Shown here in pieces: positions 1,432 to 45,631 of a stretch of 64,000 nucleotides of DNA. The stretch comes from Candidatus Aenigmatarchaeota archaeon (lineage in GTDB: Archaea; Aenigmatarchaeota; Aenigmatarchaeia; Aenigmatarchaeales; JACQIB01). A program made the position numbers and the translations under genes. Each line of letters opens with the position of its first letter. Within the stretch, counting starts at the first letter, position 1. Where the stretch lies: the NCBI GenBank assembly GCA_016198755.1, contig JACQIB010000001.1, positions 1 to 64,000 of the forward strand, written 5' to 3'. A model generated the notes under the pieces. The model worked only from the letters and a program-made list of their open reading frames with translations. It ran no database searches and was not told the origin of the DNA.

Positions 1432-2673
1432 TTACCACCAGCCTCCCTTCCCACGCACATACTTGATTGTTGAAAAAACAAGATTGAACGGGAACAGTGT
1501 TATGTATACAGTCAAATACAGAGCCAAGTCTATCAATCCTTTCCATCCTCCCAATCCCCTCTTAACAACCCCCAAACTTATCTTTATCCATATCAGTGAG
1601 AGGGCAAATGTAAGGAACCCGAAAATGCTGAAAATGTTAGGAAGGAAAAAGAAGCTTGTATCCCAGTATGGGCTAATGCCTTTTGAAACAGCAAACAAAT
1701 TAACTATTATATTATTGTAAACCCCGTTCAGGAAAACATAAGCATAAACACCAGCTCCTATAATAGAGAAAATATATGATAAAACAAAGAACGGGTAAAT
1801 GAAAGATCCAAGGCTCCCATACTTTGTGCTAAACCCAACAGATTTGTATTTTATTGAGGTTTGTATACCGCCCAAATTCCACCTGACTCTCTGTTTCCAC
1901 CACTTTCCAAAACTTGTTGGAGCACTGCTTTCAACCTCAGATCCAAGGCTCATTTTTATCTTATACCCAGCTTTCAAAATCCTCCAGGCTATTTCTATAT
2001 CCTCTGTGAAGTTTTTCTCATCAAACCCGCCAATTTCTTTCAGAACACTTGCTTTGTAAAGGCTTAGTGGTCCTGGAGTAACATAAACTCCATCCACAAG
2101 CTCCAAAAGCTTCCTTGCCCAGACAATCATCATATACTCTATAGCTTGCAGCCTTTCTATCAGTTTCTTTGGTTCCCTGACAAAGACAGATGAGGTTACT
2201 GCAGCAACTCCAGGATACCTGAAATACTGTACAGCCTTTATCAGTGCATCAGGCTTTGGATAAGAATCTGCATCCACACACCCCACAATCTCCCCTTTAG
2301 CTGCTCTAATGCCCTGATTAAGTGGTATAGCTTTCCTACCCCCGTTCACTGTCCTTTTAATCAGGTTTATTCCTGTAAATTTTCCAGCTATCTCCGCTGT
2401 TTTATCTTTCGAACCATCATCCACAACAATAATTTCCAACTTTCCCTTTGGATACTGCAAATTCTTAACAGCTTCTATTGTTCCCCCAATAGATTTTTCC
2501 TCATTGTAAGCAGGTATTATAAGGCTTACAGATGGAAGCAGGCTAAAATCCCCTATTTCATTCCTGAAACTTCCCCTTTGTTTTATATACAGTACAAAGA
2601 ACAGAAAGCCGAAAAATATGCTTAAAGCTGAGAAAACAAGGTATGTTATATCTATAACAGGGTTCAGTACCAT
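1432..2673 (-). CDS. Processive GT2 glycosyltransferase (PgaC/cellulose-synthase-like)
   Basis: IPAYNEE, DDGSKD, DADS, TED and QRVRW motifs plus TM helices. Confidence 0.9.
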   Translation of the reverse strand: MVLNPVIDITYLVFSALSIFFGFLFFVLYIKQRGSFRNEIGDFSLLPSVSLIIPAYNEEKSIGGTIEAVKNLQYPKGKLEIIVVDDGSKDKTAEIAGKFTGINLIKRTVNGGRKAIPLNQGIRAAKGEIVGCVDADSYPKPDALIKAVQYFRYPGVAAVTSSVFVREPKKLIERLQAIEYMMIVWARKLLELVDGVYVTPGPLSLYKASVLKEIGGFDEKNFTEDIEIAWRILKAGYKIKMSLGSEVESSAPTSFGKWWKQRVRWNLGGIQTSIKYKSVGFSTKYGSLGSFIYPFFVLSYIFSIIGAGVYAYVFLNGVYNNIIVNLFAVSKGISPYWDTSFFFLPNIFSIFGFLTFALSLIWIKISLGVVKRGLGGWKGLIDLALYLTVYITLFPFNLVFSTIKYVRGKGGWW

Positions 2674-27794: not shown

Positions 27795-27831
27795 TGCCAA
27801 CAGAGGAAAGAGGAAAGGGTCTGGAACATCA
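27795..27831 (+). other. 5' arm of the pre-23S processing stem with a canonical BHB
   Basis: TGCCAACAGAGGAAA-GAGG-AAA-GGGTCTGGA pairs with TCCAGACCC-CCTT-AAG-TTTCCTCTGTTGGCA at 32936-32966. Confidence 0.9.
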
Positions 27832-29071
27832 CAATAAAGGATACTGTATGGTGGATGACTCGGCATGGGTTACCGATGAAGAGCGTAGCAAGCTGCGATA
27901 AGCCTGGGTGAGACGCAAGCAGTCTTAGAACCCGGGATTCTCCAATGCGACCTCGCGCCAGTTTAGGCTGGCATTCGCATACAGAAATGTTTGCGAAAGG
28001 GAACCCGCTGAATTAAAGCATTTTAATAAGCGGAGGAAGAAAAATCAAACGAGATGCCGCTATTAGCAGCGAGCGAAAACGGCAGAGACCAACCCGAATC
28101 TTTTTGTGTAAGCAGGAAGAGATGTGGGGCCAGGTACAATCTTTCTTTCGACCTGAAGTTCCGTGGAACACGGGTGCCATAGAAGGTGAAAGTCCTGTAA
28201 GGGAAAAAAGAAAGATTGATTCTGGAGGAAGAGTACCATTCCCCGATTCGGGAGTGGGAATATGGGGGTCATCAATCTCCAAGTCTAAACATAAACCATG
28301 GCCGATAGCGAAAGAAGTACGGTGACGGAATGTTGAAAAGAATTCTTCACCGAAGATGAAAAGAACCTGAAACCATACAGTGATAGTCGCCCATGGCGCG
28401 AAAGGTGCCCTTGTGAAGGAAAACTGCGTGAGCAGTGTGTACGAACAGGGGCTTACAGCGTTATGGGGTTCGTTTCGAAACACGTGGTAGGGAGTTTGCT
28501 TTCCTGGCGAGCTTAAGCTGTAAAACGGCGAAAGCGTAGCGAAAGCGATTGCACGCAGCCCGCAAGGGTCAGGTGCAAGGTTCGAAAGAGCCTGTAGTCA
28601 GGGGGGCAAGACCCGAAACCTTTCGATCTTACCCTGGGCAGGATGAAGTGCGGCGAAAGCTGCATGGAGGTCCGATACCGATGCTAGCGCTAACTTCTCC
28701 AGCAGGAGAAGCTTCCAAGAAAAATCTGATTGGAGGAGGTGCAACCTGCTCGGGTGACCTGGGGTAAGGGGTGAAAAGCCAATCGAGAAAGGTAATAGCT
28801 GGTTCCTCTCGAAATGTCCCTCAGGACAGCCTCGCTGGAGGCAGCTTGTGGGGTAAAGCACTGATTGGGGTGTTAAGGTGGGAAACCGCCGGCACGCCTG
28901 TCAGACTCATAACCTGCAAGCACCGTAGAAGGCGGGAGTGAGGGTACCTGGGTAAGCTAGGTATCCGAAGCGGGAACAACCGCGCCTGAGGTTAAGGTCC
29001 CTAAATGATAACTAAGTCACAAAAGTGGTGTCAGTCCAAAGACAGACGGGGCGTAGGCTTAGAAGCAGCCA

Positions 29072-29927
29072 ATTTGAGTAGTAATCTATACTTTAGAATA
29101 CGAAAATCAATAAAAGGAAGATTGATTAATAGAATAAAGTGCACAAACTACCGCCAAAAAATCCGAAAATCGCGTTGAAGACTGTTAACCTGCAAGGGTT
29201 AACAGCTTTTAGAAAAACTAAGCCTACGATACCCAATTACATAAATCCGCAACTAGCATATCTGGCGGGAGCACTAAGAGATGGTACAATTTCAAAAACT
29301 ACAGGGCCGTATGGCACAAAATACTATCTAGCAATATGCAATAAAGACAAGATATGGCTTGATAGTGTAATACGGCCTACCATAGAAACAATATTCAACA
29401 TAAAACTTGGGAAAATACTGAAAGACAGACAAAAACACCAAATCAGAATAAGAAAATATGGGATAGTGCAATTCTTGGCAGATTTGTTCCAACATCCATA
29501 TGGTAAACAAACCTTATGGAAAACCCCAAAGATCATAGAGGATTCGCATAAAGAAATAAAAAAATGGTTCTTGCGAGGATTCTATGATTCTGAAGGAGGT
29601 TGTGGGAACATAACAAAATTGTATAATAAATATCCGTGGCACAGTCCATTTCCTATCAGATTCCATTCTGGATGGATAAATGAAAAAGAATGTCCTCCAC
29701 TGGATTCTATTAGGTATATATTGACTGAAGATTTTGGTATAAAATGTTCGCCTGTTATCTTTTCTAAGAGATATAAAACAGGCAGATACAAAACTCAAGT
29801 AAAAATGTTTTATATAAAAATTACAGATAAAGAACAAAAATTGAAATTCATTAAAACCATAGGTAGCTCAAATCCAACCAAATTTAAAGAACTATTATTT
29901 TTGAAAGGATTGCTGCTCAAAGCTGAA
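29072..29927 (+). mobile_element. 23S intron 1 (856 nt, ~E. coli 1077/1078), homing-endonuclease intron
   Basis: BHB: CAGC-CA|A / GCTG-AA|C; 15-bp terminal stem TTTGAGTAGTAATCT/GGATTGCTGCTCAAA. Confidence 0.9.
29139..29927 (+). CDS. Double-motif LAGLIDADG homing endonuclease; the linear ORF runs on into the exon to 30068
   Basis: LAYLAGALRDG and FLRGFYDSEGG motifs; AT-rich. Confidence 0.88.
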
Positions 29928-30733
29928 CCGCATAATCAACGCGTAACAGCGGACCGTTCGAGGACTGATGCGCTGAAAATGGACGGGAGTAAGTTATCTA
30001 CCGAGACCTCAGATACCAAAAGGTATAGCGTAGAGAGGCGCTCTGTTCGGGTAGAAGTTGGGGCGTAAGTTCCAATGGACCGTTCAGAGATGAGAATCCT
30101 ACCGATAGTAGCAGCAAAGAAGAGTTGGAATCTCTTCCGCCCGAAAGGCAAGGTTTTCCCGGCAACGATACTCGGCCGGGAGTAAGCCGATCCTAAGTCG
30201 CCCCCTAACGGACGGCGACGAAAGGGAATACGGTTAATATTCCGTAGCTGCAGCCATAGACGGGGTAACCCAAGCCCAGGCAAAATGTTTTTGGATATGT
30301 TCATGTAAGCGAAGCGTTTAAACCCTTGGAGTTCCGTCAAGGAGAGAAAAGGGTGAATGCGTTACAGGCTTCGGCGCAAGCTGGAGTTGAGCAAATTCCA
30401 AGAATCCATGAAAATTTGCCAGGGAGCGATTGGCTGCATTCGTACTCAGAACCGACGCAGGTGACCTTGTCTGAGAAGGACGTGGCGTGACGAGATACAC
30501 CAGGCTAGGGAACTCGGCAACACTGGCCGCGTACGTTCGCTATAAGCGGTGCCCATCTAGAGATAGGTGGGTCTCAGTGACCAGGGCCAAGCGACTGTTT
30601 AACAAAAACGTAGCCGGTTGCTATGCGGAAACGCTGTGTATAACCGGTGAGGCCTGCCCAGTGGCGGTGTGTCAAACTCGGTTTCAACCGAGCTAAGCCC
30701 CGCTAAACGGCGGCGGTAACTCTGACCGTCTTA

Positions 30734-30774
30734 ATCCAATCATGTAGAGAAATCTGTATGGTTGCATTGGGTAC
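30734..30774 (+). other. 23S intron 2 (41-nt hairpin, ~1927/1928)
   Basis: Removal restores GTCTTA|AGGTAGC; stem CAATCATGTAGA-GAAA-TCTGTATGGTTG. Confidence 0.85.
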
Positions 30775-30901
30775 AGGTAGCGTAATCCCTTGCCGATTAA
30801 ATGTCGGCCTGCATCAATGGCTTAACGACTTGGCCGCTGTCCCGGTCTGGAACTCGGCGAACTTGCTATTGTGGTGAAAAGGCCACAGACCCTCAGAGGG
30901 A

Positions 30902-31163
30902 ATCGGAAGAAGTGCTCTCGAAAATTTTAAAAAATAAAAATAGGTGATAAAAATGAGAGAAATCAAAAATTTAATAGAGACAAAGTCTTGCGATCCTATA
31001 ACAGCATTAAATGTTGCAACACAAATAGTGTCAGCAGGAGCAGCAGTTGCATCTGTATACTATGCATCTAAAAAGAAATAAAATAAATACCTACCAACAT
31101 AAGCGAGAAGGTATTATGATCATGAATAGTTAGAATAGAATTTGAGCATTTCTCCGACCTCAT
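30902..31163 (+). other. 23S intron 3 (262 nt, ~2054/2055) carrying a small ORF
   Basis: BHB GAGG-GA|A / CCTC-AT|A; removal restores CAGAGGGA|AGAGAAGACCCC. Confidence 0.88.
30953..31081 (+). CDS. Intron-encoded 42-aa hydrophobic peptide
   Basis: RBS AGGTGA, then MREIKNLIETKSCDPITALNVATQIVSAGAAVASVYYASKKK*. Confidence 0.65.
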   Translation: MREIKNLIETKSCDPITALNVATQIVSAGAAVASVYYASKKK

Positions 31164-31591
31164 AGAGAAGACCCCGTGGAGCTCTGCGGCAGCCTGTCGT
31201 TGCTGTGCGGTCGCGGTTTCATAGAGTAGTTGGGAGAGGTTATATCAGCGTTTTCGGGCGCTGGTTACTCGGCAATGTAACACCAACATCTCGTGACTGT
31301 ACTGCTAACCTCGACTCGGGGGACACCGATTGGTGGGCCGCTCGGCTGGGGCGGTACGCTCATGACAGGAGATCATGAGCGCGCAAAGTTATCCTCATCC
31401 CGGTCAGAAATCGGGAGTAGAGTGTAAACGCAAAAGGATGACTGACTGTGTTCCGCAAAGCAAGGAACGCAGACGCGAAAGCGTGCGTTAGCGATACACC
31501 GAGTGGTCTTTGATGGATTTCGGTGACTTCAGAAAAGCTACCCCGGGGATATGGGTTGGCGCAGAGAAGCGGGTTTTCTTGGAACAATTTA

Positions 31592-31649
31592 ATAAGGCAA
31601 AGCTATCTTGCCAATAGAAATATTGGTTTGCAAAGCAAGCTTTATGCTA
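31592..31649 (+). repeat. ~57-nt hairpin repeat, copy 1
   Basis: ATAAGGCAAAGCTATCTTGCCAATAGAAATATTGGTTTGCAAAGCAAGCTTTATGCTA. Confidence 0.9.
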
Positions 31650-31725
31650 CACATACGTGTAGTGATTTTTCTAGAAAATCCGTGATAACCATCATTCTTC
31701 CACACATGCTATGATCGTACCTTGT

Positions 31726-31782
31726 ATAAGGCAAGCTTACTTGCCAATAGAAATATTGGTTTGAAAAGCAAGCTTTATGCTA
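31726..31782 (+). repeat. ~57-nt hairpin repeat, copy 2
   Basis: ATAAGGCAAGCTTACTTGCCAATAGAAATATTGGTTTGAAAAGCAAGCTTTATGCTA. Confidence 0.9.
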
Positions 31783-31876
31783 ATCAGAGTTTGAGAGCAA
31801 TTACTTTTTGTGGAAGAACATCTCTGCGCCAAGCCACTTCATAACAGAGTCGTGGCGGGCGAGAGCTCCTATCGAC

Positions 31877-31938
31877 ATTTCGTCGAGTATAGGGTTTCAA
31901 TTTTAGAGTTAGCTATGCCAATATTCGCGGAACGAAAA
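31877..31938 (+). other. 23S intron 5 (62 nt, ~2483/2484, H89)
   Basis: Relaxed BHB ATCG-AC|A / CGAA-AA|C; removal restores TATCGAC|CCCGCGCG. Confidence 0.8.
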
Positions 31939-32031
31939 CCCGCGCGTTGCTACCTCGCTGTCGGCTCCCCCCCTCCTGGCTGTGCAGTAGCAGCCAAGGG
32001 TGCAGGTGTTCACTGATTAAAGGGGGACGTT

Positions 32032-32122
32032 AGAAAGTGCAGGATAATGCGTGGTGGGTAATTCTTCCTATTTTTGATTTGATTAGTTAGAATTATCTAC
32101 CCAAATCTTGGCTTTCCGTGAA
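32032..32122 (+). other. 23S intron 6 (91 nt, ~2576/2577)
   Basis: Relaxed BHB GACG-TT|A / CGTG-AA|A; stem GAAAG/CTTTC. Confidence 0.8.
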
Positions 32123-42625: not shown

Positions 42626-45600
42626 GTGAAAAAAATGGGATATGGATGGGGAAAGGATTTGAAAAAGCCCGAGTTTACAAAAGTCTCGGATGTTATTTGG
42701 GAGATTCCAACAAGCTTTAAGAAAGGAATGAACGTTCCAGCAAGAATATACGCAACAAAGCAGATTCTGGATCAGATGGACCTGATGGTTTTTGACCAGA
42801 TAACAAATGTAGCAACGCTTCCAGGAATTTTGAAATATGCTTACTGTATGCCGGATGGACACAGCGGCTACGGATTTCCAATAGGCGGAGTTGCAGCAAT
42901 GGATGCTGTTGAAGGTGTGATATCACCTGGAGGGATCGGATTTGATATCAACTGCCTCCACCCAGACTCAAAAATTTCTCTTTCCAATGGGACTTGGAAA
43001 AAGGTTTCTGATTTAGAGCATGAATGGGAAAATAAAAGAGTAAAGTTTTTTAATATAGAAAACAAAGCAGTTGAAAATGCCACACCCATTATGTTCATGA
43101 AACGTATGGAGGATAATAGTATTTTTGAAATAGTAACAGAAAGCGGAAGAAAAATAAATGTTACGGCAGAACACCCCATTCTAACTCAAAGAGGGTTTAT
43201 CAGAGCCGATAATCTGAAAGAAACAGATAATGTTTACACTCAGCCATTCAGCGGTGTAGAATACGAGAAGCCATCCGACGAGGTCATAGTTTCCTATGTT
43301 GACATAGAAAGAATTTTGGATGTCATAGGAATAACAAACTCTGGAAACGCAAGAGTTCAAATTTTAAATACACTTAAAAGAGTTGGTTTAAATGAAATAC
43401 GGTACAATTCCACGGCCCTGCCAGCTATTTTGAAAATAATGGGATTTGTTTTTGGAGATGGTTGCATATCTATATTGTCAAAAATAAAAAAAGGGATGAC
43501 AGCCTTTTATGGGAAAAAAGAAGATTTAGAAACTATAAAGGAAGACATAAAAAGTTTAGGGTTTAAAGCACAAAATATTTTTTCAAGGCAACGAAAACAT
43601 AAAATAGAAACTTATTATGGAACAAGCGAATTCGATTTTACAGAGCACTCTCTTTTAAAAAAATCCACAGGATTTGCAGCACTTCTCATAGCACTGGGTA
43701 CGCCACATGGAATTAAAACCTCTCAACCTTACAGGATTCCAAAATGGATAATGAAAGCACCTCTATGGCAGAAAAGACTATTTCTCGCAGCATTTTTTGG
43801 AGCAGAGCTTTCCTCTCCAAAAACTATTAATGCATATAATTTTTATATGCATCAGTTAAATATGAACAAACTAGAAATTCTAAAAGAAAATGGCGAAGAA
43901 TTTTTAAATGATATACGTCTACTGCTTTCTGAATTCTGTATAACATCTACATATCCCACTATAGTAGAAGGTAACCAGTATGTAGGCAAAAAAGGAAAAA
44001 CTATAGGTTTAAGAATTTGTATACATTCAAATCCGGACAATTTGGTCAAGCTCTATGAAAATGTGGGATACGAATATAATAAAGAAAAGTCAAATTTGGC
44101 CTGCCTTGCAGCAAATTACACACGCCTAAAGGAATCCATAAAATCACATAGGAGTGACATACGTACTTTGGCTCTTGAAATGTATAAATCAGGCGAAAGA
44201 CCGCGGGATATTAGAGCCGCTTTACTACAAGAAAACATATCAAAAAATTTTATAAACCATTCTATATGGCCTGATAGGAGCAATAATGTAAGGTTGCCTG
44301 CCGCATCAATTACTTTTGCTTTTGATGAATTCAAGAAAAATCTTATAGGAGATGGCATTGTTATCGACAAAATAAAAAAGATCGAACAACACCCCTATAA
44401 AGGATTTGTATATGATATTACAATTAACAATGAAAACCACAATTTTATAGCCAATAATATTATTTCTCACAATTGTGGAATGAGACTTGTTACTACAAAC
44501 CTTACTCTGAAGGATGTACAGCCTAAGCTGAAAGAACTTGTGGATAAGTTGTTCCAGAAGGTTCCAGCGGGAGTTGGTTCAGAAGGTTTTCTAAAGCTTA
44601 CAAAAGATGAGTTCAGGAAAGTTGTTGAGGAAGGGGCAGAGTGGTGCGTGAAAAAAGGATATGGATGGGAGGAAGATTTGCAGAGGACAGAGCTGTATGG
44701 GAGATGTAAGGATGCTGATGCAAAGAAAATCAGCCAGAAATCTGTGGATAGGGGGTATAGCCAGATAGGAACTTTAGGTTCTGGAAATCATTATTTGGAA
44801 ATACAGCATGTAAAACCAGAGAACATTATTGACAAGGCTACAGCAAAGGCATTCGGAATTTTCCCTGATCAGGTTGTAATAATGTTTCACTGCGGTTCCC
44901 GCGGGTTTGGCCATCAGGTTGCAACAGATTATCTTAACACTTTCCTTTCTGTAATGGAAAGCAAATATAAAATAAAGATTTTAGACAGGGAACTTGCATG
45001 TGCTCCGTTTAATTCTCCGGAAGGACAGGATTACTTTACTGCAATGAAATGCGGAATAAATATGAGCTTTGCAAATAGACAGGTTATTCTGCACAGGATT
45101 CGTGAAGTCTTTTCAGATGTTTTCAAACAGCCAGCAGATAAAATGGGTTTACAAATGGTTTATGATGTTGCCCACAACAGAGGTTCTTTGGAAAAGCATT
45201 TAGTGGATGGTAGCTGGAGGGAAGTTATTGTACACAGAAAGGGGGCTACTGCGTGCTTTGGTCCCAACAGAACTGAAGTGCCAAAAATCTGGCAATCCAC
45301 TGGTCAGCCCGTAATTATTGGTGGTTCAATGGAAACAGGTTCATACCTTTTAGTTGGTACAGATAAGGCAGCAGAAACATTTTTTTCAACTGCCCACGGA
45401 GCAGGCAGAACAATGAGCAGGACAAAAGCAAAGGGATTATGGAGAGGGGAACAACTTGTGAAAGATATGCAGAAGAAGGGAATTTACGTGCGCACAGTAT
45501 CTTTCCCAGGATTAGCTGAAGAGGCTGGTGGAGCTTACAAAGATATAGATTCTGTTATAAATGCTGCAGATTTGGCTGGTATTTCAAAGAAAGTTACAAA

Positions 45601-45631
45601 ACTTGTTCCAATAGGAAACGTAAAAGGTTAG
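42626..45631 (+). CDS. rtcB: RNA-splicing ligase RtcB containing an intein
   Basis: MPDGH, GFDIN|C, GTLGSGNHY, HCGSRG, YDVAHN, HRKGAT and STAHGAGR motifs. Confidence 0.96.
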   Translation: MKKMGYGWGKDLKKPEFTKVSDVIWEIPTSFKKGMNVPARIYATKQILDQMDLMVFDQITNVATLPGILKYAYCMPDGHSGYGFPIGGVAAMDAVEGVISPGGIGFDINCLHPDSKISLSNGTWKKVSDLEHEWENKRVKFFNIENKAVENATPIMFMKRMEDNSIFEIVTESGRKINVTAEHPILTQRGFIRADNLKETDNVYTQPFSGVEYEKPSDEVIVSYVDIERILDVIGITNSGNARVQILNTLKRVGLNEIRYNSTALPAILKIMGFVFGDGCISILSKIKKGMTAFYGKKEDLETIKEDIKSLGFKAQNIFSRQRKHKIETYYGTSEFDFTEHSLLKKSTGFAALLIALGTPHGIKTSQPYRIPKWIMKAPLWQKRLFLAAFFGAELSSPKTINAYNFYMHQLNMNKLEILKENGEEFLNDIRLLLSEFCITSTYPTIVEGNQYVGKKGKTIGLRICIHSNPDNLVKLYENVGYEYNKEKSNLACLAANYTRLKESIKSHRSDIRTLALEMYKSGERPRDIRAALLQENISKNFINHSIWPDRSNNVRLPAASITFAFDEFKKNLIGDGIVIDKIKKIEQHPYKGFVYDITINNENHNFIANNIISHNCGMRLVTTNLTLKDVQPKLKELVDKLFQKVPAGVGSEGFLKLTKDEFRKVVEEGAEWCVKKGYGWEEDLQRTELYGRCKDADAKKISQKSVDRGYSQIGTLGSGNHYLEIQHVKPENIIDKATAKAFGIFPDQVVIMFHCGSRGFGHQVATDYLNTFLSVMESKYKIKILDRELACAPFNSPEGQDYFTAMKCGINMSFANRQVILHRIREVFSDVFKQPADKMGLQMVYDVAHNRGSLEKHLVDGSWREVIVHRKGATACFGPNRTEVPKIWQSTGQPVIIGGSMETGSYLLVGTDKAAETFFSTAHGAGRTMSRTKAKGLWRGEQLVKDMQKKGIYVRTVSFPGLAEEAGGAYKDIDSVINAADLAGISKKVTKLVPIGNVKG
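42953..44473 (+). mobile_element. Intein (507 aa) with a LAGLIDADG endonuclease domain
   Basis: Starts CLHPD; block B TAEHP; GFVFGDG and FLAAFFGAE motifs; ends SHN followed by extein Cys. Confidence 0.93.

Follow-up and report, generated by a model that had tools for sequence, protein, structure and literature searches.

The question raised by this locus is whether an intron in the 23S rRNA gene of a Candidatus Aenigmatarchaeota archaeon carries a small gene of its own instead of an endonuclease, or whether the 42-codon open reading frame (ORF) found within it is a relic or an accident. The window analysed here spans the opening 64 kb of contig C5 in genome G000, which consists of six contigs amounting to 0.89 Mb at 40% GC, and it includes the 23S gene that hosts the intron (Table 1). 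At 4255 nt this gene is far longer than the 2987-position archaeal LSU model to which it gives a full-length Rfam match, indicating that it holds several insertions amounting to approximately 1.27 kb. In a local alignment to the Rfam model one of these stands out as a block of 271 unaligned nt immediately 5' of the GAAGACCCCGUGGAGC segment, and the sequence between 30902 and 31163 has a GC content of 28-35% as against ~55% in the flanks. Setting the region against 40 relatives allowed both exon flanks to be mapped on 19 relatives' loci; the flanks are contiguous exactly at 30901|31164 in 15 of these 19, three (G012, G021 and G032) are interrupted there by an insertion, and one ambiguous locus (L019) is counted in neither group. 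Both intron junctions are bridged with 0 differences in Logan contigs from four runs, all of them DNA runs from one groundwater study, and the contigs of these runs contain no sequence variant of the intron. Other organisms in those samples lack the intron at this junction, as in one contig of run X2, or have a mini-intron in its place. The intron site falls in a conserved strand of 23S just 5' of the GAAGACCCC segment, at what we take to be ~2054/2055 in E. coli 23S numbering, a little 5' of positions 2058-2062; a BLAST comparison of the site with E. coli 23S returned no match.

The type of intron is indicated by its predicted structure. A gathering-threshold Rfam scan of the window returned LSU rRNA as its only match and no group I ribozyme core, and the MFE fold of 30880..31185 contains a BHB motif (CUC. 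GAGG [GAA] UCGGA ... UCCGA CCUC [AUA] GAG) with a fold z-score of -2.8, equally good folds being obtained in 0 of 100 shuffles. The elements by which a BHB is recognised, namely a central 4-bp helix, two 3-nt bulges on opposite strands and outer helices, are all present, and the motif is slightly relaxed in that A30895, across from the 3' bulge, has no pairing partner. In BHB splicing each 3-nt bulge is cut between its second and third bases, and application of this rule to the 5' bulge (GAA, 30900-02, cut after 30901) and the 3' bulge (ATA, 31162-64, cut after 31163) yields ends of exactly 30902 and 31163. The same fold extends the BHB by a closing stem of ~26 bp. All 12 BHB pairs are kept in each of 10 distinct same-site introns (not counting L156 and L160, which duplicate G012 and G032 exactly), with compensatory changes that include GAGG/CCTC, GTGG/CCAC and GGGG/CCCT as well as TCGGA/TCCGA to TTGGA/TCCAA, such that H2 and H3 covary. 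The original prediction of an rRNA intron at these coordinates is thus upheld, the abutting exons of the relatives and the BHB fold giving the same ends, and the sequence is real DNA and a correctly delimited BHB intron of the 23S gene.

The genome also encodes the corresponding splicing enzymes, with the splicing endonuclease (EndA) represented by two PF01974 matches at C1:37787-38576 and the ligase RtcB by a gene within the window at 42626..45631 on the forward strand. The two PF01974 matches are arranged in tandem on the reverse strand with ~260 nt between them, the open frames containing them being 185 and 190 aa long, and these tandem catalytic-domain matches could represent a two-unit or two-subunit EndA. 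The RtcB gene is a 1001-codon frame split by an intein of ~500 residues; the Pfam family Intein_splicing covers residues 117-616 of the frame, and the RtcB domain is found on both flanks.

Further insertions were observed in the same 23S gene. One of 859 nt (~29070..29928) contains most of a 309-codon, GTG-initiated ORF (29139..30068, forward strand) that gave a sub-threshold match to LAGLIDADG_3 only (E 0.006); this ORF runs ~140 nt beyond the insertion into the exon, which suggests that it may be decaying. An insertion of ~41 nt at ~30734..30774 (42 unaligned bases by Rfam) is skipped exactly in other organisms' contigs from the four runs and is probably a mini-intron. Two more, at ~31552..31840 (289 nt) and ~31873..31938 (66 nt), have no ORF longer than 21 codons.

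Table 1. Features of the host gene and intron, followed by introns at the same site and one further insertion elsewhere in the order; positions refer to the window unless a locus is named
Feature	Location	Strand	Remarks
23S (LSU) rRNA gene, intron host	27827..32081	+	Rfam RF02540, 1902 bits, model positions 1-2987
BHB intron, 262 nt	30902..31163	+	between RF02540 positions 2157 and 2158, immediately 5' of AGAGAAGACCCCGUGGAGC
BHB, 5' half	30892..30907	+	H1 CTC 30892-94, central helix GAGG 30896-99, H3 TCGGA 30903-07; MFE fold
Intron-closing stem, 5' strand	30903..30929	+	pairs with 31136-31157; MFE and centroid structures
Shine-Dalgarno AGGTGAT	30942..30948	+	4 nt before ATG; A/T-rich tract 30923-30941 ahead
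ORF, 42 codons + TAA	30953..31081	+	peptide MREIKNLIETKSCDPITALNVATQIVSAGAAVASVYYASKKK
7-bp hairpin AATACCT/AGGTATT	31086..31115	+	just past stop codon; MFE fold
Intron-closing stem, 3' strand	31136..31157	+	MFE and centroid structures
BHB, 3' half	31153..31167	+	H3' TCCGA 31153-57, central helix CCTC 31158-61, H1' GAG 31165-67; MFE fold
Same-site intron, 874 nt	G032, L160		two-motif LAGLIDADG ORF
Same-site intron, 309 nt	L008 1204..1512	-	genome G021; orphan 73-codon ORF (MVLKEDVL...)
Same-site intron, 262 nt	G000, window 30902..31163		42-codon ORF
Same-site intron, 179 nt	L158, L159		recognisable C-terminal piece of endonuclease ORF only
Same-site introns, 37-40 nt	G012/L156, L157, L163, L161, L162		hairpins
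G037 insertion, 437 nt	L177 ~1706..2142	-	GACUGUUUAACAAA|AAAACGUAGCC region of 23S; 14-bp closing stem

Within the intron, the ORF runs from an ATG at 30953 to a TAA at 31079-31081, intact, and the peptide reads exactly as originally quoted. Its Shine-Dalgarno (SD) sequence is a perfect 7-nt complement of AUCACCU in the organism's own 16S 3' end (GGATCACCTCC), and the start-region string AAATAGGTGATAAAA(A)TG recurs before ordinary long genes in relatives. Across the genome there are 52 AGGTGA-N4-9-ATG sites, 33 of which open frames of at least 40 codons and 19 frames of at least 100. The strong ribosome binding site claimed for this ORF is therefore present, being complementary to the 16S 3' end, typical of the lineage and properly close to the ATG. 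The 16S gene itself is located on another contig (C2:~200500..203226, reverse strand, locus L189) and is unlinked from the 23S gene; the Rfam 16S match falls short of the true 3' end, which lies ~1.1 kb further on, implying a large insertion near the 16S 3' end.

The length of the ORF carries little information. Of 40,000 dinucleotide shuffles, 2304 (5.8%) contained a forward-strand ORF of 42 or more codons starting with ATG, and 16.5% contained one on either strand, making 42 codons unremarkable and, taken alone, weak evidence. The combination of an ORF of this length with a 5-mer SD was found in 19 of the 40,000 shuffles. The codon score amounts to about +7.1 to +7.2 bits, to which a short GCA-rich run (SAGAAVAS) contributes part, against a shuffle null of -11.8 ± 5.0, and the observed value was reached by 0.04% (about one) of the 2304 shuffled ORFs. 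Scored against the genome's long ORFs, the codon log-odds of 22.0 bits place the ORF at the 91st percentile among 395 real 41-codon windows and are reached by 1.3% of 686 genomic ATG ORFs of 40-50 aa, and GC at codon positions 1/2/3 is 0.40/0.42/0.19. Among the ORFs scored from 23S insertions of the order, with the G000 codon table applied to the other genomes as well, this ORF has the top codon score, above intact endonuclease genes (-6.3 to -1.2) and chance-like ORFs (-7.6 to -13). Codon usage and SD together indicate that the ORF is, or very recently was, protein-coding and adapted to a genome like G000. Codon and SD statistics would look no different in a sequence that had only lately ceased to code, for which reason these do not separate current from recent coding.

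An endonuclease ancestry for the ORF finds no backing in the comparisons made. No Pfam family matched it at E<=1; the 874-nt, 179-nt and G021 introns and the endonuclease intron of the same 23S gene gave only scattered, non-collinear matches in blastn and tblastx (E>=0.04); blastp found nothing at E<=10 among 16 ORFs of 140 aa or longer in the order's 21 23S loci; and the interior DNA of the intron had no meaningful match in the other 20 23S genes. The original prediction saw no LAGLIDADG remnant and named derivation from a decayed endonuclease as the finding that would count against it; both the family search and the intron alignments agree with the former, and no sign of the latter was seen in Pfam, blastn, tblastx or blastp. 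By every test applied, the ORF appears not to be an endonuclease relic.

Searches for relatives of the peptide were likewise negative. A word search of 5.8 billion proteins matched the 42-aa peptide to itself only, and phmmer against 1.84 billion representatives returned the peptide and two ankyrin-repeat proteins, with no accepted relative. These two (P0002 and P0003) are long eukaryote-like ankyrin-repeat/GTPase proteins whose similarity to the peptide lies in a repeated KYLIETxxCDP motif, and were rejected as repeat-amplified chance matches; peptide residues 2-17 resemble their repeated inter-repeat motif VVKYLIETxxCDP. A six-frame search of 41 other genomes of the order gave nothing at E<=1, no paralogue was found in the organism's own genome and no match in phages and plasmids, a pattern scan of viral contigs gave 0 hits, Pfam, NCBIfam, PHROGs and PADLOC had 0 matches to the peptide, and the ESM Atlas had no usable match. 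As a 42-residue query has little power for distant relatives, these searches exclude a close relative only. On this count the searches go against the original prediction, which had itself listed a lack of homologues among the outcomes that would speak against it; with no homologue there is neither a dN/dS value nor any sign of purifying selection.

The history of the site can be followed in the relatives. A search pattern made of the intron 3' end and adjoining exon detected an intron at the site in 4 of the order's 42 genomes, all from different families, and in eight metagenome contigs with introns of 37, 40, 179 and 874 nt; the pattern includes order-specific exon bases, so these counts have no bearing on other orders. 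One extra match from a phylum-wide pattern search (G331/L145) proved to be a protein-coding region and not rRNA, and a 14-base pattern scan of genome contigs was discarded as too loose, returning at least 120 unrelated, mostly bacterial loci. The introns at this site are patchy across families, and range from one with a two-motif LAGLIDADG ORF through one that retains a piece of such an ORF to bare hairpins (Table 1). Judged from their sequences, they form a decay series that matches the life cycle of a homing intron. The intron studied here is absent from its closest relatives (family f1), which makes it a feature of a single lineage.

Other insertions in 23S genes of the order also contain ORFs that do not resemble endonucleases. 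A pairwise BLAST survey of 21 complete 23S genes, crude in that it mixes introns with expansion segments and misses the 309-nt G021 intron and the mini-introns, recovered 48 insertions of at least 25 nt, 21 of them between 100 and 450 nt. A forward-strand ATG ORF of at least 40 codons is present in 6 of these 21, and an SD-like motif precedes only two of the six, the 42-codon ORF and a 126-codon ORF in the G037 insertion. The latter is an orphan that has a GAGG motif upstream, no above-threshold family match and no homologue but itself, and 0 of 20,000 shuffles gave an ORF of its length. The 73-codon ORF in the G021 intron is matched in length in 24 of 20,000 shuffles; searches with it return itself only, and its protein has sub-threshold winged-helix matches only (MCM4_WHD, Sul7s) and a weak AbiB match. 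The two ORFs are unrelated to each other, and neither is related to the 42-residue peptide or to an endonuclease. Two further non-LAGLIDADG orphan ORFs, longer than chance allows, imply that non-endonuclease cargo is not a one-off, and on sequence grounds such ORFs are recurrent in rRNA insertions of the order. The proposal of a possible class of cargo-carrying rRNA introns has its best support in these unrelated orphan ORFs of two other insertions.

A separate observation concerns genome G012, where a 283-nt insertion of 40% GC (L178, ~2272..2554, reverse strand) occupies a position at which other genomes have endonuclease introns of 720-740 nt. The 73-codon ORF inside it (MANEVLIA...) scores positively for codon usage, lacks an SD and has no Pfam match.

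We favour, with moderate confidence, the interpretation that the ORF is a real and young intron-borne small gene, probably translated from the precursor or from the excised intron. The intron would be transcribed as part of the pre-23S rRNA, EndA would cut at both 3-nt bulges, and RtcB would join the exons and probably close the intron into a circle. Ribosomes could then bind at AGGUGAU, either on the precursor or on the intron once it has been excised, and produce the 42-residue peptide, which may be associated with the membrane.

A neutral origin is the most serious competitor, and one to which we assign an appreciable though smaller share of probability: the intron would be real, and the ORF would be a decaying former intron gene or the captured start of a host-like gene, comprising promoter, SD and first codons. 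Selection would no longer act on it, and any translation would be incidental. Such decay is what the interiors of the same-site introns display as they shrink from 874 to 179 to 37-40 nt, and an ORF with neither homologue nor paralogue in an intron confined to one lineage is consistent with it. A recently coding sequence would retain its SD and codon bias, and the endonuclease genes of the order's other introns likewise use a GGTGA SD. Against this, the ORF bears no similarity to the order's endonuclease genes or to other intron interiors, it follows a perfect SD and reads uninterrupted to its KKK-stop, with a codon score above those of intact endonuclease genes, and no parent gene of any length was found among the 1.84 billion representatives.

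A more specific function was suggested by the original prediction, according to which an abundant circular mRNA yields a membrane-active toxin, a bacteriocin-like peptide or an addiction factor, coupled to ribosome synthesis. Single-sequence AlphaFold2, which is weak without an alignment, places helices at residues 3-9 and 15-40 with a mean pLDDT of 79.8, and the peptide would comprise a short charged N-terminal helix, a long Ala/Val/Gly/Ser-rich helix and a KKK tail, with a net charge of +3. The small hydrophobic type I toxins of bacteria consist of a single helix with a basic end, and the peptide is like them in size and in this single-helix architecture; it differs from them in having no sequence relation to them, in being less hydrophobic, in having no known antisense RNA and in lying inside an rRNA intron. 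The best 19-residue Kyte-Doolittle mean is 1.36, with an Eisenberg <H> of 0.38 and a hydrophobic moment (muH) of 0.09. The classic transmembrane threshold for the Kyte-Doolittle mean is 1.6, so the description of the peptide as hydrophobic is accurate to a moderate degree only, the helix remaining below that threshold. Since the long predicted helix is uniformly and only moderately hydrophobic, membrane insertion is possible.

The one long helix (15-40), the small size and the basic tail of the peptide would suit a toxin, as would a host RNA made once per 23S transcript and the known circularisation of excised archaeal rRNA introns, as far as the relevant part of that literature describes it (PMC4344496). 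The sub-threshold hydrophobicity and the low hydrophobic moment argue against a toxin, as do the lack of a PADLOC match and the consideration that constitutive co-expression in a 0.89-Mb genome would require an immunity function that has not been seen, and we regard this function as quite improbable. Least probable of all, to the point that we give it almost no weight, is a chance ORF in A/T-rich intron filler of which only the intron RNA matters, for while the 5.8% of shuffles with an ORF this long on the same strand and the several other 100-450-nt 23S insertions having 40-53-codon ORFs with no SD and negative codon scores are compatible with it, the rarity of ORF plus SD (19 of 40,000), the 0.04% of shuffled ORFs that reach the codon score and the GC periodicity over codon positions are not.

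A broader version of the small-gene interpretation would extend it to the order as a whole. BHB introns stripped of their endonuclease would serve as carriers or cradles of small, fast-evolving genes (of 42, 73 and 126 codons), their output kept in step with ribosome synthesis through a probable stable circle, and the 42-residue peptide would act at the membrane. This combination of claims we consider unlikely.

Known archaeal introns provide the setting for the small-gene interpretation. The 16S BHB introns of Thermoproteales include endonuclease-bearing forms, ORF-less remnants and hairpins of less than 50 nt (Jay & Inskeep 2015, PMC4496867), and, to the extent covered by the sections of that article drawn on here, they have in common with the introns described above the BHB motif, a location in a highly conserved rRNA segment, patchiness, and the series from endonuclease to remnant to hairpin. 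The present intron differs from them by its intact, SD-led 42-codon ORF of host-like codon usage, which makes its interior neither ORF-less nor an endonuclease gene or recognisable remnant of one, and no class for introns with non-endonuclease ORFs figures in those sections (PMC4496867). Excised circular rRNA and tRNA introns of archaea are expected to undergo the same processing, with EndA acting at the two bulges and a ligase closing the circle, in the parts of the account considered here (PMC4344496); our intron is known from DNA alone, and a small non-endonuclease protein made from a circle is not described in those parts. The group I rRNA introns of DPANN archaea, in the portion of the study that concerns us (Nawrocki et al. 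2018, PMC6125680), likewise reside in the LSU rRNA of small-genome archaea and often encode LAGLIDADG proteins; here, by contrast, the intron is of the BHB type, with no ribozyme core and no Rfam group I match. No description of small non-endonuclease ORFs in archaeal rRNA introns was found in the open-access literature searched.

Archaeal rRNA introns have so far been treated either as selfish endonuclease vehicles or as dead shells. If the 42-codon gene is real, such introns can carry cargo other than endonucleases, and the orphan ORFs of the sister introns point the same way. A circular RNA made once per ribosome would then act as an mRNA, coupling the output of a small protein to ribosome biogenesis, and the locus would make the birth or capture of a very young gene accessible to study in a genome of less than 1 Mb. 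Should the ORF instead be a relic, the locus would still document every stage in the life of a homing intron at a single rRNA site, in lineages whose rRNA introns have received little study.
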